A stretch of DNA of 64,000 nt from Escherichia coli (lineage in GTDB: Bacteria > Pseudomonadota > Gammaproteobacteria > Enterobacterales > Enterobacteriaceae): the NCBI RefSeq assembly GCF_030384885.1, contig NZ_CP128613.1. One strand, 5' to 3'. Within the stretch, counting starts at the first letter, position 1; each line of letters begins with the position of its first letter. The notes beneath the pieces are model-generated. The model ran no database searches. It saw only the letters and a program-made list of their open reading frames with translations, and was not told where the DNA came from. Position numbers and translations under genes: made by a program. Shown here piece after piece: positions 10,203-64,000 of the stretch.

Positions 10203-10568
10203 GTCGACAGGGAGTCAGACAACGAAGTGAACATCAGGATGATGACACTTCTGAAGGACACACCAGGAGGGTGTTTCAGGGAAAGGCTTCTGGATGAAGC
10301 GAAGAGGATGACGCAGGACGCGTTAAAGGACACCTCCAGGATGGAGAATGAGAACCGGTCAGGATGATTCGGTGGGTCAGGAAGGCCAGGGACACTTCAG
10401 GATGAAGTATCACATCGGGGTGGTGTGAGCAGGAAGCAATAGTTCAGGATGAACGATTGGCCGCAAGGCCAGAGGAAAAGTTGTCAAGGATGAGCAGGGA
10501 GCAACAAAAGTAGCTGGAATGCTGCGAAACGAACCGGGAGCACTGTGAATACAGTGCTCCCTTTTTTT
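10203..10568 (+). ncRNA. csrB: CsrB small RNA (CsrA-sequestering)
   Basis: About 18 copies of CAGGA(U/A)G-type GGA motifs in roughly 360 nt, beginning GTCGACAGGGAGTCAGACAACG and ending in hairpin GGGAGCACTGTGAATACAGTGCTCCC plus T7; no credible ORF. Confidence 0.9.
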
Positions 10569-10613
10569 ATTCCTGCTATCCTTCGCGGCAGTTTTTCTTA
10601 TTGAGGTTGCTTT

Positions 10614-32275: not shown

Positions 32276-33219
32276 GAGTTCCCCGCGCCAGCGGGGATAA
32301 ACCGCAAAAACATGCCTCTAATCGCCTCATATCGCCGAGTTCCCCGCGCCAGCGGGGATAAACCGTGAATTCGCGGTCGTCGGTAGTTATTGTCACAGAG
32401 TTCCCCGCGCCAGCGGGGATAAACCGTTTATATCCCCGATACGCACGACGCGGACCGGGAGTTCCCCGCGCCAGCGGGGATAAACCGCCCCGCCCTCCTG
32501 CACCACGATCGCGCCCTCAGAGTTCCCCGCGCCAGCGGGGATAAACCGCCTTACGCCTGCAACCTCGTGCCACAGTTCATGAGTTCCCCGCGCCAGCGGG
32601 GATAAACCGGTTTTCAGTCCAGCGGCAGCTACGAGGAATCGGAGTTCCCCGCGCCAGCGGGGATAAACCGGATGGTTGAGGGTTATATGATGCCAGTTTA
32701 CGGAGTTCCCCGCGCCAGCGGGGATAAACCGGCAAAAACCGGGCAATCGCAAAAAGGCGTAATGAGTTCCCCGCGCCAGCGGGGATAAACCGACGCTGAT
32801 TATTCCGTACCAGTATTGTGAGGCGAGTTCCCCGCGCCAGCGGGGATAAACCGGATGACTCTGTGGCCTGGGTGGTTACCTGTCTGAGTTCCCCGCGCCA
32901 GCGGGGATAAACCGCCCTGCCCGTTTTGCGGGAGTTCCAATGTTGAGAGTTCCCCGCGCCAGCGGGGATAAACCGCATTATTTTTAGACGGTTGCGGGAT
33001 TGGATTAGAGTTCCCCGCGCCAGCGGGGATAAACCGCGGCCTGGTCGATATCTCGCTGCTAGCGTCAAGAGTTCCCCGCGCCAGCGGGGATAAACCGTAA
33101 GATGATCTCACGGAATTGAACGAACTACGGAGTTCCCCGCGCCAGCGGGGATAAACCGGACACAGAGCGCTGCTATAGCGCCTATGCCAAGAGTTCCCCG
33201 CACCAGCGGGAATAAACCA
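32276..33219 (+). CRISPR. Type I-E CRISPR array: 16 repeats, 15 spacers of 32 nt
   Basis: 29-bp repeat GAGTTCCCCGCGCCAGCGGGGATAAACCG at a strict 61-bp period, starting 32276, 32337, 32398 ... 33191; the last repeat is degenerate (gagttccccgcaccagcgggaataaacca); AT-rich leader upstream at about 31940-32275. Confidence 0.97.
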
Positions 33220-33690: not shown

Positions 33691-33763
33691 AGGGATAAAC
33701 CGGACTTGTTATAATTCTTGATGTTGTCGAACTTATGTTCCCCGCGCCAGCGGGGATAACCAT
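33691..33763 (+). CRISPR. Degenerate orphan mini-array (partial repeat, one spacer, degenerate repeat)
   Basis: cagggataaaccg + roughly 33-nt spacer + gttccccgcgccagcggggataacc; lies about 470 bp beyond the main array, after an AT-rich leader-like stretch. Confidence 0.7.
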
Positions 33764-43262: not shown

Positions 43263-44524
43263 CGAATACTCCTGACAACATCGCCCGCCAGATGCCACAG
43301 GCCATGACGACGTAAATGACGCCAGAGCAACTGGCGCAGCGGCGGAACAGGTTTATCACCTTGATCCCATAAATCACGGGAAATATCCTGCATTAACGCA
43401 GGCCACTTACGGTACCAGCCCGGGCGTTGCAAAAGCGCCGGAACATGCTGATAACGCTGTAGAACATCCCACAACATGCTGTGCTCTACATTGTGATGAT
43501 AAAGCGGAAACAGATTTTGCGGCTCGCGGTGCTGACAGGCGCTTATCAGCGTGTGTGCCGCCGCCTGCGCGCCAGTCAGCGCCATATCCATGCCGCGCAC
43601 GGAAATTCCGGTATTGACGCAACTGCGCAACGTATCGCCCACCAGCAGCCAGCCGTTACCGCCATATTGCACCGGCATACTGTGCAGCCCACCTTCCGGC
43701 ACCAGATGCGCGCCATACTCCAGTGATTCCGTGTTTTTGATAAGCGGGCGCACTGCCGGATGCGTTTTAAAGCGAGCCAGCAGCTCGCTTGCCGGAACAC
43801 GACTTTGCGTAAGTGAAGAGAGCGGGCAAACAATCCCTAACGAGAGCGTTTGTTGATTAGTATAAAGAAATGCGCCGCCGGGTAAGTCATCACAGATTTC
43901 GCCGCTGAATAACAACGCTGCGCCTTCGTTATTCTCCAGATGAAAACGTTCTTCAATAGCGGATGTTTCCAGTGACAGAACTTCTTTAATCCCCAACGCC
44001 ATCACTTCGCCAGCAGGACGAGTCACTAACCCGTGACGCTCAGACAGGACGCTGTTGGCACCTTCTGCCAGCACCACATAACGGGCGCGGAGAATATCGT
44101 CACCACAAATAACGCCGCAAACTCTGCCTTTTTCTTCATACAGTGCATCCACCGTCGTACCGGGGATGCATTCGACACCTTCTTTTTCGGCTTCGGCAAC
44201 CAGCCACGGATCGAATCGCGCACGTAATACACTCCAGGATTCACCGTCGGGCTGTAAGCTGGAAAACGTCGTTGCGCCATCGGGCGTTAACAGAGAAAGG
44301 CTTTCGTGAGTGATGCGTCGTTCAAGGGGCGCGGTCAGGTGAAATTGAGGGAGGAGTTCCGCAAGTGCATGGGTATATAACCGCCCGCCGGAAAGATTTT
44401 TGCTGCCGGGAATTTCAGCGCGTTCCAGTAACAAAACGGATAAACCCGCTCGCGCGCAGCGTAACGCGCAAGCAGTGCCTGCAATACCGGCACCAATAAT
44501 AATAATGTCGCAGTCGTCTTCCAT
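43253..44524 (-). CDS. ygcN: FAD-dependent oxidoreductase (FixC-like, ETF-quinone oxidoreductase type)
   Basis: ORF track gives 433 aa; probable start MEDDCDIIIIGAGIAGTACA (dinucleotide-binding GxGxxG). Confidence 0.78.
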   Translation of the reverse strand: MEDDCDIIIIGAGIAGTACALRCARAGLSVLLLERAEIPGSKNLSGGRLYTHALAELLPQFHLTAPLERRITHESLSLLTPDGATTFSSLQPDGESWSVLRARFDPWLVAEAEKEGVECIPGTTVDALYEEKGRVCGVICGDDILRARYVVLAEGANSVLSERHGLVTRPAGEVMALGIKEVLSLETSAIEERFHLENNEGAALLFSGEICDDLPGGAFLYTNQQTLSLGIVCPLSSLTQSRVPASELLARFKTHPAVRPLIKNTESLEYGAHLVPEGGLHSMPVQYGGNGWLLVGDTLRSCVNTGISVRGMDMALTGAQAAAHTLISACQHREPQNLFPLYHHNVEHSMLWDVLQRYQHVPALLQRPGWYRKWPALMQDISRDLWDQGDKPVPPLRQLLWRHLRRHGLWHLAGDVVRSIRCL

Positions 44525-44601
44525 GTCATGCCCCAGATATCCAGAACACAACACCCTAACATAGCGTTACTTAAGGGAAATTGACCGCCGACACACTCTT
44601 A

Positions 44602-44967
44602 TCATTCGCCGCGATAGATACAACCTGCGGTGCAGGTTTCTTTTACCATCACCGCACTTAACAGCGGCACAACGGGTTTAACCTGATCCCAAATCCATTT
44701 TGCTAAAACTTCGCTGGTTGGGTTTTCCAGACCTGGAATATCATTGAGATAATGGTGATCGAGGCGCTCATAAGTTGGCTTAAACGCTGCTTTCAGTTCA
44801 GCGAAATCGATAATCCAGCCCGTATGCGGATCGACTTCCCCGGTAATTTCCAGTCGCACCATAAAGGAATGCCCGTGCAGGCGACCACATTTATGCCCTT
44901 CCGGGACGTGTGGTAAGCGGTGAGCGGCTTCGAAGGTGAAATCTTTAAATAACGTGGTGGACATCAT
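44602..44967 (-). CDS. queD: 6-carboxy-5,6,7,8-tetrahydropterin synthase
   Basis: ORF track gives a 149-aa frame; product begins at the internal [34 protein letters not shown] (121 aa). Confidence 0.88.
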
Positions 44968-45282
44968 AATTTCTCTACAGGACGATAAAACCGCCGTAGA
45001 GTACCGGAAAGGCTGTTTTTTCGCATTATCTAAAACGACTTTGTTGCGCAAAATCGCTGATTTATCTTAATGATTGGATAAATTCATTTGTTTTTCATTG
45101 GGTTGAGTAATCTATTTTGTTGTTAAAGACTATTGCTAAAACAGGTTAGTCGATTTGGTTATTAGTTATCGCTATCCCGTCTTTAATCCACACCGTTCAT
45201 CCCGTTAACCTTACCTTCTCTTCTGTTTTATGGGCGCTGACAGGGCGCAGAAACAGCTTTGCTTACTGGAACATAACGACGC

Positions 45283-47082
45283 ATGACGACACAGGTCCCA
45301 CCTTCCGCGTTGCTTCCGTTGAACCCGGAGCAACTGGCACGCCTTCAGGCGGCCACGACCGATTTAACTCCCACCCAGCTTGCCTGGGTTTCTGGCTATT
45401 TCTGGGGCGTGCTCAACCAGCAGCCTGCTGCGCTTACAGCGACGCCAGCGCCCGCCGCAGAAATGCCGGGTATAACTATTATCTCCGCTTCGCAAACCGG
45501 CAATGCGCGCCGGGTTGCTGAAACATTACGCGATGATTTATTAGCGGCAAAACTGAACGTTAAGCTGGTGAACGCGGGCGACTATAAATTCAAACAAATC
45601 GCCAGCGAAAAACTGCTCATCGTGGTGACGTCAACGCAAGGTGAAGGGGAACCGCCGGAAGAGGCCGTCGCGCTGCATAAGTTCCTGTTCTCCAAAAAAG
45701 CGCCGAAGCTGGAAAACACCGCGTTTGCCGTGTTTAGTCTCGGCGATAGCTCTTATGAATTTTTCTGCCAGTCCGGGAAAGATTTCGATAGCAAGCTGGC
45801 GGAACTGGGCGGTGAACGCCTGCTCGACCGTGTCGATGCCGACGTTGAATACCAGGCTGCTGCCAGCGAGTGGCGCGCCCGCGTGGTCGATGTTCTTAAA
45901 TCGCGCGCGCCTGTCGCAGCACCTTCACAATCCGTCGCTACTGGCGCGGTAAATGAAATCCACACCAGCCCGTACAGCAAAGACGCGCCGCTGGTGGCGA
46001 GCCTTTCGGTTAACCAGAAAATTACCGGGCGTAACTCTGAAAAAGACGTTCGCCATATCGAAATTGACTTAGGTGACTCTGGCCTGCGTTATCAGCCGGG
46101 TGACGCGCTGGGCGTCTGGTATCAGAACGATCCGGCACTGGTGAAAGAACTTGTCGAACTGCTGTGGCTGAAAGGTGATGAACCTGTCACCGTTGAGGGC
46201 AAAACCCTGCCGCTGAATGAGGCGCTACAGTGGCATTTTGAACTCACCGTCAACACCGCCAACATCGTTGAGAACTACGCCACGCTAACCCGCAGTGAAA
46301 CGCTGCTGCCGCTGGTGGGCGATAAATCGAAGTTACAGCATTACGCCGCGACGACGCCGATTGTCGACATGGTGCGTTTTTCTCCGGCACAGCTTGACGC
46401 TGAAGCCCTGATTAACTTGCTGCGCCCGCTGACGCCGCGCCTGTACTCCATCGCCTCCTCGCAGGCGGAAGTCGAGAACGAAGTACACGTCACCGTTGGC
46501 GTGGTGCGTTATGACGTGGAAGGCCGCGCCCGTGCTGGCGGTGCCTCCAGCTTCCTTGCGGACCGTGTGGAAGAAGAGGGCGAAGTCCGCGTATTTATCG
46601 AACATAACGACAACTTCCGCCTACCAGCCAACCCGGAAACGCCGGTGATTATGATTGGCCCGGGCACCGGCATCGCACCGTTCCGCGCCTTTATGCAGCA
46701 ACGTGCTGCTGACGAAGCGCCGGGTAAAAACTGGCTGTTCTTCGGCAACCCACACTTTACGGAAGATTTCCTCTACCAGGTGGAGTGGCAGCGCTACGTC
46801 AAAGAGGGCGTGCTGACACGTATCGATCTCGCCTGGTCGCGCGATCAAAAAGAAAAAATTTACGTACAAGACAAACTGCGCGAACAGGGCGCAGAGCTGT
46901 GGCGCTGGATCAATGACGGTGCCCACATTTATGTCTGCGGCGACGCTAATCGCATGGCGAAAGACGTTGAACAGGCACTTCTGGAAGTGATTGCCGAATT
47001 TGGTGGCATGGACACCGAAGCGGCGGATGAATTTTTAAGTGAGCTGCGCGTAGAGCGCCGTTATCAGCGAGATGTCTACTAA
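45283..47082 (+). CDS. cysJ: Sulfite reductase [NADPH] flavoprotein alpha subunit
   Basis: 599-aa ORF with flavodoxin-like N-terminus and FAD/NADPH reductase C-terminus. Confidence 0.95.
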
Positions 47083-48794
47083 TGAACGAAAAACATCCAG
47101 GGCCTTTAGTGGTCGAAGGAAAACTGACAGACGCCGAGCGCATGAAGCTTGAGAGCAACTACCTGCGCGGGACCATTGCGGAAGATTTAAACGACGGTCT
47201 GACCGGCGGCTTTAAGGGCGACAACTTCCTGCTGATCCGTTTCCACGGTATGTATCAGCAGGATGACCGCGATATCCGCGCCGAACGTGCTGAACAGAAG
47301 CTGGAACCGCGTCATGCGATGCTGCTGCGCTGCCGTCTGCCGGGTGGGGTGATCACCACTAAACAGTGGCAGGCAATTGATAAATTCGCCGGTGAAAACA
47401 CCATTTATGGCAGCATTCGCCTGACCAACCGCCAGACGTTCCAGTTCCACGGCATTCTGAAAAAGAACGTCAAACCGGTGCACCAGATGCTGCATTCGGT
47501 CGGTCTTGATGCGCTGGCGACCGCCAACGACATGAACCGTAATGTACTCTGCACCTCGAACCCATTTGAATCTCAGTTGCACGCGGAAGCGTATGAGTGG
47601 GCGAAGAAAATCTCTGAACATCTGCTGCCGCGTACCCGCGCCTACGCGGAGATCTGGCTCGATCAGGAGAAAGTCGCCACCACCGATGAAGAACCCATCC
47701 TCGGTCAGACCTACCTGCCGCGTAAATTCAAAACCACGGTAGTGATCCCGCCGCAGAACGATATCGATCTGCACGCCAACGACATGAACTTTGTGGCGAT
47801 CGCGGAAAACGGCAAGCTGGTGGGCTTCAACCTGCTGGTGGGCGGTGGGCTTTCTATCGAACACGGCAACAAGAAAACCTACGCCCGCACGGCGAGCGAG
47901 TTTGGCTATCTGCCACTGGAGCATACGCTGGCGGTGGCGGAAGCGGTCGTTACCACTCAGCGTGACTGGGGTAATCGTACTGACCGTAAAAACGCCAAAA
48001 CCAAATACACGCTGGAGCGCGTGGGTGTTGAGACGTTTAAAGCAGAAGTGGAACGTCGCGCGGGGATCAAATTTGAGCCGATCCGTCCTTATGAATTTAC
48101 CGGACGCGGCGATCGTATCGGCTGGGTAAAAGGGATCGATGACAAATGGCACCTGACGCTGTTTATCGAAAATGGCCGAATTCTTGATTATCCGGGGCGT
48201 CCGCTGAAAACCGGCCTGCTGGAGATCGCGAAGATCCACAAAGGTGATTTCCGCATTACGGCGAACCAGAATCTGATCATCGCCGGTGTACCGGAAAGCG
48301 AGAAAGCGAAGATTGAGAAGATCGCCAAAGAGAGCGGATTGATGAATGCCGTCACGCCGCAGCGCGAAAACTCAATGGCCTGCGTGTCATTCCCGACTTG
48401 CCCGTTGGCGATGGCGGAAGCGGAGCGTTTCCTGCCGTCGTTTATCGATAACATCGATAATTTAATGGCGAAACATGGTGTCAGCGATGAGCACATCGTG
48501 ATGCGTGTAACAGGCTGCCCGAACGGTTGTGGTCGCGCGATGCTGGCGGAAGTGGGCCTGGTGGGTAAAGCGCCGGGTCGCTACAACCTGCATCTTGGCG
48601 GCAACCGCATGGGAACGCGTATCCCACGGATGTATAAAGAAAACATCACCGAGCCGGAAATCCTGGCGACGCTTGATGAACTGATAGGGCGCTGGGCGAA
48701 AGAGCGTGAAGCGGGTGAAGGCTTCGGTGACTTTACGGTGCGTGCGGGCATCATTCGCCCGGTGCTCGATCCGGCGCGTGATTTGTGGGATTAA
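47082..48794 (+). CDS. cysI: Sulfite reductase [NADPH] hemoprotein beta subunit
   Basis: 570-aa [33 protein letters not shown]...; start overlaps the cysJ stop. Confidence 0.95.
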
Positions 48795-48795
48795 C

Positions 48796-48850
48796 CATCA
48801 GTCCAGTCTTGTAGGCCTGATAAGACGCGTAAGCGTCGCATCAGGCAAGG
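48796..48850. repeat. REP element
   Basis: tgtaggcctgataagacgcgtaagcgtcgcatcaggcaaggc between cysI and cysH. Confidence 0.7.
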
Positions 48851-48867
48851 CAAACAGTGAGGAATCT

Positions 48868-49602
48868 ATGTCCAAACTCGATCTAAATGCCCTGAACGAA
48901 CTGCCGAAGGTAGATCGCATTCTGGCGCTGGCGGAAACTAACGCCGAGCTTGAAAAACTGGATGCTGAAGGCCGCGTTGCCTGGGCGCTGGAAAATCTGC
49001 CCGGTGAATATGTGCTTTCTTCCAGTTTCGGCATTCAGGCGGCGGTGAGCCTGCATCTGGTTAATCAGATTCGCCCGGATATCCCGGTGATCCTGACCGA
49101 TACGGGTTATCTGTTCCCGGAAACCTACCGCTTTATTGACGAGTTAACGGACAAACTCAAGCTCAACCTGAAAGTGTACCGCGCTACCGAAAGCGCCGCC
49201 TGGCAGGAAGCACGCTACGGCAAACTGTGGGAGCAGGGCGTTGAAGGCATTGAAAAGTACAACGATATCAACAAAGTCGAACCGATGAACCGGGCGCTGA
49301 AAGAACTGAACGCACAAACGTGGTTTGCTGGCCTGCGCCGTGAACAATCCGGCAGCCGCGCTAATTTACCGGTGTTGGCAATTCAACGTGGTGTATTTAA
49401 AGTGCTGCCGATTATCGACTGGGATAACCGAACTATTTATCAGTATCTGCAAAAACATGGCCTGAAATATCACCCATTATGGGACGAAGGATATTTATCG
49501 GTTGGTGATACACATACAACCCGTAAATGGGAACCCGGTATGGCGGAAGAAGAAACGCGTTTCTTTGGCTTAAAAAGGGAATGTGGGCTGCACGAAGGGT
49601 AA
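48868..49602 (+). CDS. cysH: Phosphoadenosine phosphosulfate (PAPS) reductase
   Basis: ORF track starts 48706; ATG at 48868 gives [25 protein letters not shown]... (244 aa). Confidence 0.93.
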
Positions 49603-49865
49603 ATATTGTCGGATAAAATAAACGCCTCTGTCAGAAATGATGGGGGTGTTTTTATTTTGCGAGCAGCATTCCGGCATTTAAACGTGAATATAGCAGGGGA
49701 AATCAACAGTTATAGAATGGCGTCGGGTGCTTGAGGCTGTCTGGCGTTAAGCATTCGCGAGGTTCCAGATGGACAAAAGCCCCAGGCGATATATCTATCA
49801 ACCTGAGGCTCGCGTTCGAACGTAGCAATTCGGATGTTAGTCTCTTCTTTGCAGGGAGGCAAGAC

Positions 49866-50018
49866 ATGCTGACAAAATATGCCCTTGTGGCAATCATCGT
49901 ACTGTGTTGTACAGTACTGGGATTCACGCTGATGGTAGGCGACTCGTTGTGTGAGTTGAGTATCAGAGAACGTGGTATGGAGTTTAAGGCAGTTCTCGCT
50001 TACGAATCGAAGAAGTAG
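49866..50018 (+). CDS. hokX: Hok/Gef-family type I toxin (small membrane peptide)
   Basis: ATG at 49866 after GGGAGG gives [50 protein letters not shown] (50 aa); Hok-type TM helix plus the LCE...AYE motif; symbol by position only. Confidence 0.75.
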
Positions 50019-50256
50019 CCACCACGCGGGGGTAAAACCCCGCGTATTGAATTGTGATGGTTTGGTCTCCTGCACCCTTTTTTTCATTTATATTGTTTTT
50101 GTGAATATTATGCCTGTGTTTATTATTTATATATATCACAGATGAAAATCATTGAATTATTCATAATGTGAATATTTTATTGAACGATATATATCACAGA
50201 TAATTTTTAATATATGCGTAAATATCCTTTAAGTTTTACTGAAGGATAAAAACATT

Positions 50257-51690
50257 GTGACTTTCTTTGATTTCTGGGGAAAAACCCGACGTGGCGAGAA
50301 AGAGGGTGGCGACGATTATCACCTTCTTTGCTGGCATTCGCTGGATGTAGCCGCGATAGGCTATTTAATGGTCAAAAACAACTGTTTCGGGCTGGCTGAC
50401 TATTTTCGTCAATTAGGTTTCGCTGACACGGATCAGGCAGCACAATTTTTCGCCTGGTTGTTGTGCTGGCACGATACTGGAAAATTTGCCCGCTCATTTC
50501 AGCAACTTTACCTGCACCCACAACTCAAGGTTCCGGAAGGCGCAAGAAAGAATTACGAAAAGATCTCTCATTCAACGCTGGGTTACTGGTTGTGGCATCA
50601 TTATTTAATTGAATGTGAAGAGTTGCTTCCTTCATCTTCACTCTCTTTGCGCAAACTTAAACGAGTAATAGATATGTGGATGCCCGTGACGACCGGGCAT
50701 CATGGTCGGCCTCCTGACCGTATCGATGAACTGGACAACTTTCTGCCTGAAGACAAAGCTGCCGCACGGGATTTTCTCCTTGAAATCAAGGTACTGTTTC
50801 CGCTCATCGAGATCCCTACATTCTGGGATGATGACGAGGGCGTTGAACTTATAAAACATTTTTCCTGGTATATCTCTGCAACCGTCGTACTCGCAGACTG
50901 GACGGGATCGTCAACGCGGTTTTTTCCACGCGTTGCACAGGCAATGGATATTAAAGATTACTGGCAGAAGGCTTTAGTTCAGGCTCAAAACGCATTAACC
51001 GTCTTTCCCCCAAAAGCAGAAAGCGCGCCTTTCACTGGAATTAATACGCTGTTTCCTTTTATTGAGAACCCAACACCGTTACAGCAAAAGGTGTTGGATC
51101 TGGATATCAGCCAGCCAGGACCACAGTTGTTTATTCTGGAAGATGTGACTGGCGCAGGTAAAACAGAAGCGGCGCTTATCCTGGCGCACAGGTTGATGTC
51201 TGCGGGGAAAGCACAGGGTTTGTTTTTTGGTTTGCCAACAATGGCAACGGCCAATGCCATGTACGATAGGCTGGTAAAAACCTGGCTTGCTTTCTATTCG
51301 CCACAATCCCGCCCCAGCCTGGTGCTGGCACACAGCGCTCGTTCGCTAATGGATCGCTTTAACGCATCGCTGTGGTCTGGTGATTTTGTGGGGTCAGAAG
51401 AACCGGATGAACAAGCGTTCAGTCAGGGATGTGCGGCCTGGTTTGCTGACAGTAACAAGAAGGCGTTGCTGGCTGAAATTGGCGTCGGCACGCTGGATCA
51501 GGCGATGATGGCGGTGATGCCGTTCAAACATAATAATCTGCGGCTTCTGGGGCTGAGTAACAAAATCCTGCTAGCCGATGAGATCCACGCCTGTGACGCT
51601 TATATGTCGTGCATTCTTGAAGGGCTGATCGAGCGGCAGGCGCGTGGCGGAAACAGCGTTATTTTGCTTTCTGCTACGTTGCCGGGGTAG
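50257..51690 (+). pseudogene. cas3: cas3 (type I-E), 5' fragment: HD nuclease plus helicase motifs I-III, premature stop
   Basis: 477-aa ORF with Walker A (VTGAGKTEAA), DExH (LLADEIHACD) and SAT motifs, stopping right after SATLPG; full Cas3 is roughly 890 aa. The start codon is non-ATG (likely GTG); my own count places it at 50258, one nucleotide off the track. Confidence 0.85.
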
Positions 51691-51746
51691 GGATACGGCG
51701 TGATGACACCGAATGCTTAAACGCGTTTAATCGCCACTATTCACTG

Positions 51747-52304
51747 GTGGTTTGCGCCAGCCGTAACCCGCGCTGGGCACGGGATTATCACACGGTCCAG
51801 ATGCCAAAAGAGGTGCGTAAAGCGCGTTATTTCAGCCGTCGCGAAGAGTTGAGCGCCCCTGATCTTCTAAGCGCGATTATCTCCCGGCGCGACTACTACA
51901 CCGATGCCTGGTGGATGGTGGCCGTGGCAACAACAGCTGATGCGCCTTACAGCCTCGAACAGTTGCAGGAAGGTTTACGCCATCCGGTTTTTCCGCTTTA
52001 TCTGGGGCGAAAAAGCCATCCGCTGGCATTACCCCTTGCGCCGTTACTGCTTGAAGGTAACGCGTCTGATGCCTTACGTAACGCATACCAACAGTATCAG
52101 GATCGTTTCCACGAACTGAAAGTCTCACTCCCGAAACTTCAGGATGAATGCTGGTGGGAAGGGGAGCACGATGGCCTGGTCTCGAGCAAAATATTACGCC
52201 GCCGGGATGTTCCTTTAAATCGTCAGCAGTGGCTGTTTGGGGAACGCACCGTCAATCAGGGGCCGTGGCTCAGCAAGGAGGAACCATGTACCTCTCAAGA
52301 ATAA
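51747..52304 (+). pseudogene. casD: casD (cas5e) 3' remnant
   Basis: Frame contains RDYHTV ... PLYLGRKSHPLALPL, matching the C-terminal two-thirds of Cas5e as I recall it; no N-terminal region; its 3' end overlaps the casE start as in intact operons. Confidence 0.65.
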
Positions 52305-52932
52305 CCTTACATACCGGCCAGCTTTCGCCTGCGCAGTTACTGCATCTGGTGGATCGCGGTGAATATGTGATGCATCAGTGGCTGTGGGATCTTTTTCCTG
52401 GCGGCAAAGAAAGGCAATTTCTTTATCGTCGGGAAGAACTCCAGGGCGCGTTTCGCTTTTTTGTCCTGTCGCAGGAACGCCCGGCGGAAAGTGAAATGTT
52501 CACCATCGAATGCCGGTCATTTGCGCCGGAGCTGCGTACCGGACAATCCCTTTGTTTCAACCTGCGGGCGAATCCAACAGTCTGTAAAGCGGGTAAGCGC
52601 CACGATCTGCTGATGGAGGCGAAACGGCAGGTGAGGGGGCAGGCGGAAGGAAGTGATGTCTGGTTGCATCAACAACAGGCGGCGCTGGGCTGGCTGGCTG
52701 CGCAGGGAGAGAGAAGTGGTTTTACACTGCTGGATACCTCGGTCGATGCCTACCGACAACAGCAACTGCGGCGGGAAAATGCCCGGCAACTGATCCAGTT
52801 CAGTAGCGTGGATTATACGGGGATGCTGACGGTCACCGAGCCAGGGTTATTTCTGCAACGTCTCTGCCTGGGGTATGGCAAAAGCCGGGCGTTCGGCTGT
52901 GGTCTGATGTTAATCAAACCCGGAGCAGAGGC

Positions 52933-52936
<4 letters not shown>
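52286..52936 (+). CDS. casE: CRISPR pre-crRNA endoribonuclease Cas6e (CasE)
   Basis: ATG at about 52286 after AAGGAGG gives MYLSRITLHTGQLSPAQLLHLVDRG...GCGLMLIKP. Confidence 0.85.
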
Positions 52937-54146
<1,210 letters not shown>

Positions 54147-54240
54147 GTTACCCGTTCTTTAAAAATAAGGAAATGTTTGAATTTAGTTGGTAGATTGTTG
54201 ATGTGGAATAAAATTGTTTAAAAACAGATACGTATGCTTA

Positions 54241-54574
54241 GTGTGTTCCCCGCGCCAGCGGGGATAAACCGAATACCCAGCGCTATTTCGAGCGCGAGAG
54301 AGTGTGTTCCCCGCGCCAGCGGGGATAAACCGGAAATTTCGGAAATTAAATCCGCTCGCGATCGGTGTTCCCCGCGCCAGCGGGGATAAACCCCATGGCA
54401 GGAAGAGCGGATGATTTAGGGGTAAGTGTTCCCCGCGCCAGCGGGGATAAACCGAAGCCGGATCACATTTTCTTAGCGGAGCTGACGTGTTCCCCGCGCC
54501 AGCGGGGATAAACCGCTCTCGGTTCTGGGGTACTGTTACCCATAACTGAGCTCCCCCGCGTCAGCGGGGGAACT
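54241..54574 (+). CRISPR. Type I-E CRISPR array beside cas2: 6 repeats, 5 spacers of 32 nt
   Basis: GTGTTCCCCGCGCCAGCGGGGATAAACCG at a 61-bp period, starting 54241, 54302, 54363, 54424, 54485; terminal degenerate repeat at 54546 (gagctcccccgcgtcagcgggggaactcc); AT-rich leader 54147-54240. Confidence 0.95.
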
Positions 54575-54597
54575 CCCAACTCCCATTTTCAAACGCC

Positions 54598-55635
54598 TCA
54601 TGACGCCTTCGCCAGTTCCTTCACCAGCGGTAGCATTATCCGCATAACGTCACGGCAGCGACGTTCTATTCTTCCAGGAAGCGCCTTATCAATATGCTGT
54701 TGATTATCAAGCCTTACATCATGCCAGCTATTTCCCGCCGGGAAGGCCGGTGTTTTTGCGCGTTGCTGATAACCATCCTTATTTCCAAGATTCCAGTTGG
54801 TCGCCTCCACCGAAAGTACCGCAATACCGGCTTTGTCGAAAACTTCTGCATCGTTACAACACCCAGTGCCTTTCGGATAGTTTTTATTCAAACCTGGATT
54901 TGTTGTCGCTGCAATCCCATGATTACGCGCAATTGCCAGCGCTCGATCACGGGTTAATTTCCTGACAGCCTCTGGTGTATTTACACCACTATTAAAATAC
55001 AATTTATCGCCAACAATTAAGTTATCGAGATTAATCACCAGCAGCGTATTTTTCTTTTCAGTATCGCTCATGCGCTTGAGTAAATTCTCAGCGCCTAATT
55101 TCCCTTCTTCTTCTCCACTGGTTGCCACAAAACGAATACCATACTCGGTAGGCGTATTTTTCAGACGTTCAGCCAGTTCCAGCATGACACCTAAACCTGC
55201 GGCGTTATCATCCATTCCTTGTAACGTCAGCCCGCCGAGATTGGCATCGGCGTCGGCATCGCTCAGTGGAGCGTACGTATCAAGATGCGCCATAATGATG
55301 ATCTGCTGCGGCGCTTTGCCTTCATGAGCGGCAATCACCGTACTTCCCGTCACGTTGTGCCAGTTTTTGCGGTTATCGCGGGCGGTGTAAATATATCGGC
55401 TATTAAATGTCCGAATATCACTGCGATAACCCATCTGTTGAAACTGTTGGCGAATATAATCGGCAGATAACATTTCTGCAGGAGTTCCGGTCATGCGTCC
55501 CGGAAAGAAAGTAGCAATATGTCGTGCCTGTGTATTAGCAAAATCACCAGGTTTAGGTGACGAGGCGTGTACGGGGAGAATAAAGCATACGCCGAGCGCC
55601 AGGGCAGCGGTACGGTGGCGCAATGCGGAAAACAT
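54598..55635 (-). CDS. iap: Alkaline phosphatase isozyme conversion aminopeptidase (M28 family)
   Basis: 345-aa ORF MFSALRHRTAALALGVCFILPVHASSPKPGDF... with signal peptide. Confidence 0.88.
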   Translation of the reverse strand: MFSALRHRTAALALGVCFILPVHASSPKPGDFANTQARHIATFFPGRMTGTPAEMLSADYIRQQFQQMGYRSDIRTFNSRYIYTARDNRKNWHNVTGSTVIAAHEGKAPQQIIIMAHLDTYAPLSDADADANLGGLTLQGMDDNAAGLGVMLELAERLKNTPTEYGIRFVATSGEEEGKLGAENLLKRMSDTEKKNTLLVINLDNLIVGDKLYFNSGVNTPEAVRKLTRDRALAIARNHGIAATTNPGLNKNYPKGTGCCNDAEVFDKAGIAVLSVEATNWNLGNKDGYQQRAKTPAFPAGNSWHDVRLDNQQHIDKALPGRIERRCRDVMRIMLPLVKELAKAS

Positions 55636-55887
55636 AGTGAGTCCTTAAATACCATGCAAATTTTTTTACCGCCATAGTATGAAACTGCCGCTGCGCTAAA
55701 ACAATTTCAAATCTTCCTAAACGCCCGAAATCCGGTGCCTTAAGCACTTTTTGATATTAGCTTTGCCAAATCGTTATTCCGTTAAGGAACTACTCATTCT
55801 AATTGGTAATTTCATTCGTTCTCTTACGCTCCCTATAGTCGAAACATCTGATGGCAAGAAAAATAGCGGTATTGCAAAGGAACGGTT

Positions 55888-56796
55888 ATGGATCAAAAAC
55901 GACTTACTCACCTGCGGCAACTGGAGGCGGAAAGCATCCACATTATTCGCGAGGTGGCGGCAGAATTCTCAAATCCGGTGATGCTCTACTCTATCGGTAA
56001 AGATTCCAGCGTCATGCTGCATCTGGCGCGCAAGGCGTTTTATCCGGGTACGCTGCCTTTCCCTCTGCTGCATGTTGATACTGGCTGGAAATTCCGCGAG
56101 ATGTATGAGTTTCGTGATCGTACGGCTAAAGCCTATGGCTGCGAGTTGCTGGTGCATAAAAACCCGGAAGGCGTGGCGATGGGGATTAATCCATTCGTAC
56201 ACGGCAGCGCAAAACATACCGATATTATGAAAACCGAAGGTTTGAAGCAGGCGTTGAACAAGTACGGTTTTGATGCCGCCTTCGGTGGCGCACGTCGTGA
56301 CGAAGAGAAATCCCGCGCTAAGGAGCGAATCTACTCTTTCCGTGACCGCTTCCATCGCTGGGACCCGAAAAATCAGCGCCCGGAGCTGTGGCACAACTAC
56401 AACGGGCAAATTAACAAAGGCGAAAGTATCCGCGTTTTCCCGCTCTCTAACTGGACCGAGCAGGATATCTGGCAATACATCTGGCTGGAAAATATCGACA
56501 TTGTCCCGCTGTATCTCGCTGCTGAACGTCCGGTTCTGGAACGCGACGGTATGTTGATGATGATTGATGACAACCGTATCGACCTGCAACCGGGCGAAGT
56601 GATTAAAAAACGGATGGTGCGTTTCCGTACGCTGGGCTGCTGGCCGCTGACCGGCGCGGTGGAGTCAAATGCGCAAACACTGCCGGAAATCATCGAAGAG
56701 ATGCTGGTTTCCACCACCAGTGAACGTCAGGGGCGCGTGATTGACCGCGACCAGGCAGGTTCTATGGAGCTGAAAAAACGTCAGGGGTATTTTTAA
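55888..56796 (+). CDS. cysD: Sulfate adenylyltransferase subunit 2
   Basis: 302-aa [30 protein letters not shown]... (PAPS-reductase-like fold). Confidence 0.95.
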
Positions 56797-56797
56797 G

Positions 56798-58225
56798 ATG
56801 AACACTGCACTTGCACAACAAATTGCCAATGAAGGCGGCGTTGAAGCCTGGATGATTGCGCAACAACATAAAAGTCTGCTGCGTTTTCTGACCTGTGGTA
56901 GCGTCGATGACGGCAAAAGTACCCTGATTGGTCGCCTGCTGCACGATACCCGCCAAATCTACGAAGATCAGCTCTCATCGCTGCATAACGACAGTAAGCG
57001 TCACGGCACCCAGGGCGAAAAGCTGGATCTGGCACTGCTGGTGGACGGCCTGCAAGCTGAGCGTGAACAGGGCATCACCATTGATGTGGCTTACCGCTAT
57101 TTCTCCACTGAGAAGCGTAAATTTATAATCGCCGATACCCCTGGGCACGAGCAGTACACCCGCAATATGGCGACTGGCGCATCGACATGCGAACTGGCGA
57201 TCTTACTGATCGATGCCCGTAAAGGCGTGCTCGATCAAACGCGTCGTCACAGTTTTATCTCCACACTGTTGGGGATCAAACATCTGATCGTGGCGATCAA
57301 CAAAATGGATCTGGTGGATTACAGCGAAGAGACGTTCACCCGCATTCGTGAAGATTATCTGACCTTTGCCGAGCAGCTGCCGGGTAATCTGGATATTCGC
57401 TTTGTGCCGCTCTCCGCGCTGGAAGGCGACAACGTGGCTTCGCAAAGTGAAAGCATGTCGTGGTACAGCGGTCCGACACTGCTCGAAGTGCTGGAAACCG
57501 TGGAAATCCAGCGAGTGGTGGATGCTCAGCCAATGCGCTTTCCGGTGCAGTACGTTAACCGCCCGAATCTCGATTTTCGTGGCTACGCCGGAACGCTGGC
57601 ATCCGGTCGCGTGGAAGTCGGGCAACGTGTCAAAGTGCTGCCCTCTGGTGTGGAATCAAACGTCGCGCGGATCGTGACCTTTGATGGCGATCGCGAAGAA
57701 GCCTTTGCCGGAGAAGCGATCACCCTGGTGCTGACGGATGAGATCGACATCAGCCGTGGCGATCTGCTGCTGGCGGCAGACGAAGCGTTACCGGCTGTGC
57801 AGAGCGCGTCGGTGGATGTGGTATGGATGGCGGAACAGCCGCTTTCCCCAGGCCAGAGTTACGACATCAAAATTGCCGGTAAGAAGACGCGTGCTCGTGT
57901 TGATGGCATTCGTTATCAGGTTGATATTAATAACCTTACTCAACGCGAAGTTGAAAATCTGCCGCTGAACGGCATCGGCCTGGTGGATCTCACTTTTGAC
58001 GAGCCACTGGTGTTAGATCGTTATCAGCAAAACCCGGTTACTGGTGGTCTGATTTTTATCGATCGCCTGAGCAATGTGACCGTGGGTGCCGGTATGGTGC
58101 ACGAGCCAGTTAGCCAGGCTACTGCTGCGCCATCTGAATTCAGTGCATTCGAACTGGAATTGAATGCCCTGGTTCGCCGCCATTTCCCGCACTGGGGTGC
58201 GCGCGATTTACTGGGAGATAAATAA
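56798..58225 (+). CDS. cysN: Sulfate adenylyltransferase subunit 1 (GTPase)
   Basis: 475-aa ORF with GTP-binding motifs ([18 protein letters not shown]). Confidence 0.95.
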
Positions 58226-63463: not shown

Positions 63464-64000
63464 ATGAGCGCGGGAAGCCCAAAATTCACCGTTCGCCGCA
63501 TTGCGGCTTTGTCACTGGTTTCGCTATGGCTGGCAGGCTGTTCTGACACTTCAAATCCACCGGCACCGGTCAGCTCCGTTAATGGCAATGCGTCTGCAAA
63601 CACCAATTCTGGTATGTTGATTACGCCGCCGCCGAAAATGGGTACGACGTCTACAACGCAGCAACCGCAAATTCAGCCGGTACAGCAGCCACAAATTCAA
63701 TCTGCACAACAACCGCAAATCCAGCCGGTGCAGCCAGTTGCTCAGCCGCCGGTACAGATGGAAAACGGACGCATCGTCTACAACCGTCAGTATGGGAACA
63801 TTCCGAAAGGCAGTTATAGCGGCAGTACATACACCGTGAAAAAAGGCGACACACTTTTCTATATCGCCTGGATTACTGGCAATGATTTCCGTGACCTTGC
63901 TCAGCGCAACAATATTCAGGCGCCATACGCGCTGAATGTAGGTCAGACCTTACAGGTGGGTAATGCTTCCGGTACGCCAATCACTGGCGGAAATGCCATT
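63464..64000 (+). CDS. nlpD: Murein hydrolase activator lipoprotein NlpD, N-terminal part (gene runs off the window end)
   Basis: ATG at 63464 gives [35 protein letters not shown]... with a Q/P-rich repeat region; frame open to the window end. Confidence 0.85.

Follow-up and report, generated by a model that had tools for sequence, protein, structure and literature searches.

The window analyzed here is a stretch of 64,000 nucleotides from an Escherichia coli chromosome. The window shares 99.98% identity with strain 2013C-4282 (NZ_CP027579.1), and its positions 44257 to 57690 show 100% identity with contig JAJLMA010000012.1 of assembly GCA_036346665.1. The interval between cas2e and iap carries a RefSeq CRISPR annotation on the matching sequence of 2013C-4282; by NCBIfam and RefSeq annotation, it is flanked by cas6e, cas1e, and cas2e upstream and by iap downstream. 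All three cas genes are intact and on the plus strand: cas6e (52286 to 52936, 216 amino acids [aa], with no differences from 2013C-4282 in this segment), cas1e (52933 to 53856, 307 aa), and cas2e (53853 to 54146, 97 aa). Their products are identical to the proteins that RefSeq annotates in 2013C-4282. Cas1 has 84% identity to K-12 Cas1, gapless over 303 aligned residues, and keeps E141, H208, and D221.

Farther upstream, the operon is broken. Relative to 2013C-4282, 4,628 bp are lost at a junction at 51680 to 51681, with 2 bp (TG) of microhomology. Gone with this segment are casA, casB, and cas7e in their entirety, along with the 3′ half of cas3 and the 5′ end of cas5e. The truncated cas3 (50257 to 51690, plus strand) encodes 477 aa, comprising the HD domain and part of the helicase; its stop lies 3 codons past the junction, and the product is far below full length (about 885 to 899 aa). 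The cas5e remnant (51681 to 52304, plus strand) is missing about 41 N-terminal codons. An assembly artifact was considered as the source of the deletion and rejected, since independent assemblies and runs share the junction: it was found in NCBI assembly GCA_036346665.1 and in the Logan runs ERR12948940 and SRR34489103, and the exact truncated Cas3 protein and junction occur on 8 contigs from several samples. This deletion and the interference genes lost with it are a feature that the original prediction, which dealt with the repeats and spacers downstream of cas2, missed.

The array lies entirely on the plus strand. Its leader (54147 to 54242) is AT rich and 96 nt long, position 54147 being the first base past the cas2 stop codon. 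Perfect copies of the 29-nt repeat GTGTTCCCCGCGCCAGCGGGGATAAACCG start at 54243, 54304, 54426, and 54487 (repeat 1, 54243 to 54271; repeat 2, 54304 to 54332; repeat 4, 54426 to 54454; repeat 5, 54487 to 54515), and repeat 3 (54365 to 54393) is the same sequence save for C as its last base. All five are of the GTGTT type and share the start GTGTTCCCCGCGCCAGCGGGGATAAACC. Repeat 1, being leader proximal, is the template for copying when a spacer is added. The repeats are spaced by exactly 61 nt, leaving five 32-nt spacers: spacer 1, the newest (54272 to 54303); spacer 2 (54333 to 54364); spacer 3 (54394 to 54425, CATGGCAGGAAGAGCGGATGATTTAGGGGTAA); spacer 4 (54455 to 54486); and spacer 5, the oldest or "anchor" spacer (54516 to 54547). 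At the iap end, the array closes with a degenerate terminal, or "anchor," repeat (54548 to 54576), GAGCTCCCCCGCGTCAGCGGGGGAACTCC, which matches the consensus at 13 of 29 positions without gaps and at 21 of 30 with gaps. The interval first given for the array stopped at 54574, 2 nt before the end of this terminal repeat.

For comparison, the window also holds a remote array (32276 to 33219, plus strand), flanked by queE and ygcE in the RefSeq annotation; it has 15 spacers and 15 GAGTT repeats, all perfect copies of GAGTTCCCCGCGCCAGCGGGGATAAACCG, and it closes with a degenerate terminal repeat. In the E. coli type I-E system, the CRISPR-I locus holds array CRISPR2.1 and the CRISPR-II locus array CRISPR2.3 (PMC3903273); the queE-ygcE array is CRISPR2.3. 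What the original prediction had read from the letters holds at this level: the 61-nt register confirms five spacers, the third repeat does end in C and the other four in G, the terminal repeat is heavily degenerate, and position 2 is T in 5 of 5 cas2-side repeats and A in 15 of 15 remote repeats. The worry that the two repeats might be identical and the difference a transcription error was checked as well; the repeats differ. Reading error or chance as a source of the array itself can likewise be rejected, given five 28-nt identities at a fixed spacing, far past what chance would yield.

The consensus of both arrays was reported by Swarts et al. as GWGTTCCCCGCGCCAGCGGGGATAAACCG, with a GWGTT start (PMC3338789). 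The repeats here fit that consensus, as well as the 61-nt periodicity and the 32/33-nt spacers. In an Rfam scan, the CRISPR-DR families all fell below the gathering score, and only CsrB and sok were above it. The repeat RNA is predicted to form a 7-bp hairpin of the kind recognized by Cas6e, at −15 kcal/mol and a z score of about −3.2 to −3.6.

The leader meets the first repeat at ...GCTTAGT|GTGTT and shares conserved blocks with the leaders of other E1 arrays, of K-12, and of the remote array. A sigma-70-like sequence, TTGGTA-16-TAAAAT, is found at 54187 to 54214 within it; in the promoter scan of the leader, such a site was no more frequent than in shuffled sequence, giving no evidence of a promoter. 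The repeat forms were named type A and type T by Diez-Villasenor et al. (2013, PMC3737337), who write them as the other strand; converted to the orientation used here, type A is GTGTT and type T is GAGTT. In CRISPR2.1, repeats of type A are paired with leader-A and O157-type cas genes, those of type T with leader-T and K-12-type cas genes (PMC3737337). The leader-A junction, given as "ACT" in the orientation of those authors (PMC3737337), equals ...AGT here. Almendros et al. (2014) named the variants E1/L1 and E2/L2 (PMC3903273) and found hok/sok in all strains but the E2 strains (PMC3903273). The window has a sok RNA at 49725 to 49881 (Rfam match), and a Hok/Gef coding sequence is annotated in a near-identical record, placing a hok/sok module between cysH and cas3, upstream of cas3. 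Because hok/sok is present together with the leader-A junction and GTGTT repeats, the window carries a standard I-E1 locus. We are highly confident that the region is the CRISPR2.1 array of E. coli type I-E, in its I-E1/cas-EO variant, with leader-A and type-A repeats.

Compared with the I-E1/cas-EO (O157:H7-type) CRISPR2.1, the window has the same position between cas2 and iap, the same hok/sok upstream of cas3, the same leader and ...AGT|G junction, the same GTGTT repeats in a 61-nt unit, the same AWG protospacer-adjacent motifs (PAMs) at the sites matched by spacers 1 and 5, and the same degenerate anchor repeat at the iap end; it differs by its spacer content, by a rarer version of the anchor, and by the internal cas3-cas5e deletion. 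K-12 CRISPR I (I-E2/cas-EK) has the locus, GWGTT consensus, hairpin, and acquisition mechanism in common with the window. Unlike the window, however, K-12 lacks hok, its cas operon is complete, and it has leader L2, GAGTT in the 12 younger CRISPR2.1 repeats, and a GTGTT remote array. CRISPR-typing papers also quote the identical 29-mer GTGTTCCCCGCGCCAGCGGGGATAAACCG for the type I-E systems of Salmonella, Klebsiella, and Cronobacter, whose arrays occupy other chromosomal loci and hold other spacer sets. The array, its repeat variants, and its terminal repeat are already known biology of the E. coli CRISPR2.1 locus; each flagged feature has a published explanation, and the importance of the finding goes little beyond correct annotation.

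By homology with the systems of K-12 and O157, a pre-crRNA would be transcribed from the leader, and Cas6e would cut it at the base of each repeat hairpin. Cas1 and Cas2 would insert new spacers at the junction of the leader and repeat 1, duplicating positions 1 to 28 of repeat 1, and base 29 would be brought in by the 33-nt prespacer, as the final PAM base. The terminal degenerate repeat and the oldest spacer together form the ancient "anchor" unit at the iap end. We infer, rather than observe, the present-day adaptation capacity of this strain.

Such a copying scheme bears directly on the position 2 difference, which had been taken as fixed between the two arrays and as a sign of independent leader-repeat lineages. 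New repeats copy the leader-proximal repeat and younger repeats inherit its changes, so single-switch runs of a variant are expected; likewise, as the first repeat of each array is the source of position 2 in that array, an array can be internally uniform while two arrays differ. Our survey covered 12 further strains picked from BLAST hits, neither a random nor a complete sample, with both arrays taken from 10 strains and CRISPR2.1 alone from A29 and TUM1881; TCM3e1 contributed only a cas2-side remnant. In the surveyed arrays with an E1 leader, all younger repeats were GTGTT, with GAGTT confined to the oldest full repeat in A29 and TUM1881. CRISPR2.1 of K-12 (E2) has 12 young GAGTT repeats above 1 old GTGTT repeat. 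The remote-array leader ended in ...GTTTAGA in all strains with a remote array except QML220601 (...GTTTACA). Position 2 nevertheless varied: the remote array was all GAGTT in six (the window, 2013C-4282, E200086, 24A16CRGN010, strain 104, and QML220601) and GTGTT in K-12, M9, and TUM14771; in 00_3230 it switches midway, with 6 young GTGTT repeats above 4 old GAGTT repeats. A further variant, C14T, was restricted to leader-proximal CRISPR2.1 repeats, 5 in E200086 and 8 in 24A16CRGN010.

Thus, across strains, position 2 varies at the remote locus and is linked to the leader in CRISPR2.1. The notion of independent lineages stands to the extent that type-A repeats are tied to leader-A, cas-EO, and E1 in CRISPR2.1 (PMC3737337, PMC3903273). 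The notion of a fixed difference between arrays does not survive the comparison, since the same CRISPR2.3 leader bears either variant and K-12 is the inverse of the window. The A/T difference at position 2 is not fixed, either between the loci or species-wide; position 2 is a neutral single-base state that spreads as the first repeat is copied, and it does not mark deep lineages.

One could argue instead that GTGTT and GAGTT are functionally specialized, with Cas6e or Cas1-Cas2 telling them apart, the two arrays being regulated or loaded separately, and selection maintaining the difference. Repeat type, leader type, and cas variant do co-occur in CRISPR2.1 (PMC3737337), and a CRISPR-A/leader-A substrate combined with K-12 Cas proteins gave aberrant insertions (PMC3737337); those insertions, however, were ascribed to the leader junction rather than to repeat position 2. 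In our predictions, neither position 2 nor position 29 affects the hairpin; position 2 lies outside it, and the GTGTT and GAGTT folds are identical. The occurrence of either variant behind one CRISPR2.3 leader, and the midway switch within one array, also speak against specialization, as does the inverse arrangement of K-12, in which both arrays nevertheless acquire spacers (PMC3338789). We consider specialization very improbable and retain the neutral, copy-spread reading of position 2.

The C at the end of repeat 3 had been noted alongside the degenerate terminal repeat as a departure from the consensus. Rather than decay of the repeat, it more plausibly represents base 1 of the spacer, derived from the PAM (PMC3338789): type I-E systems do not copy the final base of a repeat from the old one but take it from the prespacer, where it closes the PAM (PMC3338789). 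A CCT end is known for repeat 2 of the K-12 CRISPR2.3 array (PMC3338789), and we saw it in our survey, too. Among 162 distinct internal repeat units sampled, 7 had a final base other than G (A, C, or T), all of them isolated singletons; variants at positions 10, 13, and 14 in the sampled repeats occurred mostly in runs, with few isolated. The likeliest reading is that the C belongs to spacer 3, as the first of 33 nt; it would have been captured from a site with a non-AWG PAM or through a 1-nt slip, and the younger repeats would not inherit it. A later G-to-C point mutation is a possible alternative.

The protospacer search that had been proposed for these spacers succeeded for spacers 1 and 5 and yielded nothing for spacers 2 to 4. 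Spacer 1 matches recE (exodeoxyribonuclease VIII) of a Rac/lambdoid-type prophage at 31 of 32 positions, with an ATG PAM; the protospacer context is CATG|AATACCC...GAGAGT|TAAAA, and the G of the PAM is the last base of the repeat. Spacer 5 matches SSU5/pHCM2-like phage-plasmids at 28 of 32 positions, with an AAG PAM, the matches comprising 12 phage records and 675 plasmids. For spacers 2 to 4, no protospacer was found among INPHARED phages or PLSDB plasmids at E values of ≤1 or among 5,426 E. coli genomes at E values of ≤10. Spacer 3 had no match in IMG/VR, either as an exact 32-mer or with every third base left free in each of three phases. The spacers of this array appear to have been acquired from mobile elements, as the sequence matches demonstrate for spacers 1 and 5.

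Nine other genomes carry, within an annotated CRISPR, a spacer that matches spacer 1 at 31 of 32 positions. In the two of these nine that we opened, A29 and TUM1881, the first CRISPR2.1 spacer corresponds to the same recE protospacer shifted by +1 nt: the first repeat ends in A, as the protospacer predicts, and the spacer gains the next protospacer base, T. Judged from these sequences, the shift probably reflects an independent, slipped acquisition, two compensating indels being far less likely. This natural +1 slip in related strains illustrates that the final repeat base comes in with the spacer, and it is a field confirmation of a laboratory result, with no new principle involved.

At the other end of the array, the oldest spacer and the terminal repeat have been proposed to act together as an anchor that resists recombinational loss, with versions that differ slightly between lineages (PMC3903273). 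Spacer 5 was present in 27 of 5,426 complete genomes (26 besides that of the window) and was always paired with the GAGCTCCCCCGCGTCAGCGGGG(G)AACTCC terminal repeat, TCM3e1 included. The window carries one of the rarer anchor versions. The degenerate terminal repeat is old, being conserved in strains whose systems are intact.

The original prediction saw in the short length of the array a sign of little recent acquisition. The data do not support this. Five spacers sit inside the range of 3 to 17 found in 11 sampled E1-type CRISPR2.1 arrays, and the newest spacer is the 31-of-32 prophage match described above. Among the 5,426 complete genomes, spacers 2 to 4 were absent from other lineages, and spacer 1 occurred outside this lineage only as the independently acquired, slipped version. 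No rate of acquisition can be read from the array, because both arrays are the same in the window and in the undeleted 2013C-4282, its only very close relative. Relatives that share the anchor have wholly different spacers above it (7 in E200086, 10 in 24A16CRGN010, and 2 in TCM3e1), and their remote arrays have only the two oldest spacers in common. Counted as new spacers in CRISPR2.1 and CRISPR2.3, the window has 4 and 13, E200086 has 7 and 4, and 24A16CRGN010 has 10 and 7. The differing spacers above a shared anchor imply that each lineage either added its own at the leader end or lost others.

The second of these possibilities would have the array shortened by recombination between repeats, removing older spacers, instead of growing slowly. 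It could account for the 2 to 10 other spacers of the anchor-sharing relatives, none in common with the window, and there are two cases of the kind of event it needs: a hybrid terminal repeat in TUM14771 resembles such a product, and in TCM3e1 a deletion extends from cas3 into the array and leaves three spacers. A different anchor-adjacent spacer in each lineage, however, fits independent growth from an anchor-only ancestor equally well, and the 5,426 complete genomes yielded no intermediate array holding part of the window's spacer set. We consider such shortening rather unlikely. Neither array length nor a one-base repeat variant should be taken as evidence of activity or inactivity.

A further reading traces the short array to a long-inactive system in this lineage and sees mutational decay in the C of repeat 3 and the degenerate terminal repeat. 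E. coli I-E systems are silenced by H-NS, and natural arrays change slowly; moreover, the cas operon here is broken and the arrays are the same as in the nearest relative. Set against this, the other four repeats are perfect, the array length falls within the sampled 3 to 17, and spacers 1 to 4 are specific to the lineage among the 5,426 complete genomes (spacer 1 being found elsewhere only in slipped form), the newest with its 31-of-32 match to a prophage. The terminal degenerate repeat is conserved in strains with intact systems (PMC3903273), and the deletion postdates every spacer, as the undeleted 2013C-4282 has identical arrays. We therefore find long-standing inactivity quite unlikely; the cas operon of this strain decayed recently.

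What the deletion has cost the strain can be judged from gene content. The arrays would no longer be able to direct interference or primed adaptation, as a strain without a complete Cascade or a working Cas3 is not expected to interfere. It should be scored as interference dead despite its two clean arrays and the presence of cas1, cas2, and cas6e. In K-12, the regulated cas promoter lies in the segment upstream of casA. With that segment deleted here, expression of cas6e-cas1-cas2 would come only from the cas3 promoter or from internal promoters.

One can envision, as an unlikely reading to which we give some small weight, a natural "adaptation-only" locus, in which the deletion would have put the cas5e remnant, cas6e, cas1, and cas2 behind the truncated cas3 and the cas3 promoter, with the regulated promoter upstream of casA gone. 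If this reading were true, the intact leader and first repeat might let the strain record spacers, yet it would be unable to use them. Separately, the recE protospacer found at the leader end of CRISPR2.1 here and, shifted by 1 nt, in nine other genomes hints at recurrent natural acquisition from lambdoid prophages, although the E. coli CRISPR system is usually regarded as silent.

Other E. coli lineages have deletions or insertion sequence (IS) insertions between cas3 and cas7e/cas5e. In TCM3e1 and the IS-mediated arrangements described by Almendros et al. (2014), as in the window, interference genes are lost and the array and anchor are retained. The extent differs, in that TCM3e1 has a cas3 fragment joined to a 3-spacer remnant, whereas the window keeps the whole array. 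Also unlike those cases, the deletion in the window is IS free, has 2 bp of microhomology, and spares cas6e, cas1, cas2, the leader, and the array.

A "frameshifted" cas3 is annotated in 2013C-4282 and in other strains, and we considered it as an older loss of interference but did not make use of it. The frameshift consists of one inserted T at nt 21 of the annotated model, and just past it a GTG opens an 885-aa cas3 open reading frame, whose residue 6 aligns with residue 10 of K-12 Cas3; because almost none of the homologous Cas3 N terminus is lost, the frameshift is probably harmless.

A deletion of 4,628 bp in the window's cas operon begins midway through cas3 and extends to the cas5e 5′ end; its junction lies at 51680-51681 (context 50257-52304). 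The deletion is IS-free and has 2-bp microhomology. The identical 51680/51681 junction was found in GCA_036346665.1 and in the Logan runs ERR12948940 and SRR34489103; 2013C-4282, a relative 99.98% identical elsewhere, does not have the deletion. Across E. coli lineages, the interference half appears to have been eroded repeatedly.

The start region of cas3 (window 50214-50257; 21212-21255 in L002, the sequence of 2013C-4282) bears on how the gene has been annotated. In 2013C-4282, 24A16CRGN010, strain 104, and TUM14771, cas3 is labeled as frameshifted. In 2013C-4282 this results from a single extra T at nucleotide 21 of the gene model; pseudogenes of that same length (2,701 bp) are found in the three other strains. 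The pseudogene label may be an artefact of the chosen start codon, because an 885-aa ORF that begins at a GTG shortly downstream can be aligned to K-12 Cas3 starting near residue 5 (residue 6 of the ORF is placed against residue 10 of K-12 Cas3). In other E. coli lineages, the stretch between cas3 and cas7e/cas5e is interrupted by IS421/IS150 or has deletions that differ from this one (for example, NZ_CP128642.1, NZ_CP060873.1, and NZ_CP033401.1).

In CRISPR2.1, the cas2-adjacent array, strains A29 and TUM1881 have an identical first spacer (positions 2473-2533 of both L015 and L016, their respective sequences), which is the recE spacer slipped by +1, and in both the first repeat ends in A. 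The three oldest spacers are also common to the two strains, whereas the intervening ones differ. This pattern suggests either recombination that shifted the cas-leader-first-spacer end between arrays or repetition of the same acquisition.

The concatenated spacers of the remote array, CRISPR2.3, gave 880 genome matches, K-12 included, and mid-array spacer 8 (window 32732-32763), which accounted for 38 of 40 among the matches listed, appears to be behind most of them. Spacer 5 had a 29-nt match in one genome among the matches listed, while spacers 14 and 15, the latter with one mismatch, are also present in E200086 and 24A16CRGN010. This points to internal deletions or recombination in the past of CRISPR2.3. 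The leader-proximal remote-array repeat of E200086 and 24A16CRGN010 (L005 5606-5634 and L006 5078-5106, respectively) has four changes (GAGTTCCCCACGTCAGCGGGGATAAACCT), two of them within the hairpin stem, and might block new acquisition or processing there. About 0.5 kb downstream of the window's remote array, a lone degenerate type-2 repeat (ATGTTCCCCGCGCCAGCGGGGATAACCAT, 33735-33763) fits the CRISPR2.2 remnant described in Almendros 2014 (PMC3903273); in E200086 and 24A16CRGN010 the site holds a pair of repeats of this kind.

Between cysH and cas3 lies a hok/sok-type toxin-antitoxin module (window 49725-50018), identified by an Rfam sok match of 104 bits and a Hok/Gef CDS annotated in a near-identical record; this module marks CRISPR-I arrangements other than E2, the K-12-type variant. 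The CsrB sRNA gene is at 10212-10571 (full-length Rfam match, 381 bits). A 24-nt unit (CAGCAACCGCAAATTCAGCCGGTACAGC-like) occurs three times in tandem at 63659-63734. Coordinates transferred from 2013C-4282 place these copies within nlpD, where they presumably encode the Gln/Pro-rich repeat region of its product.
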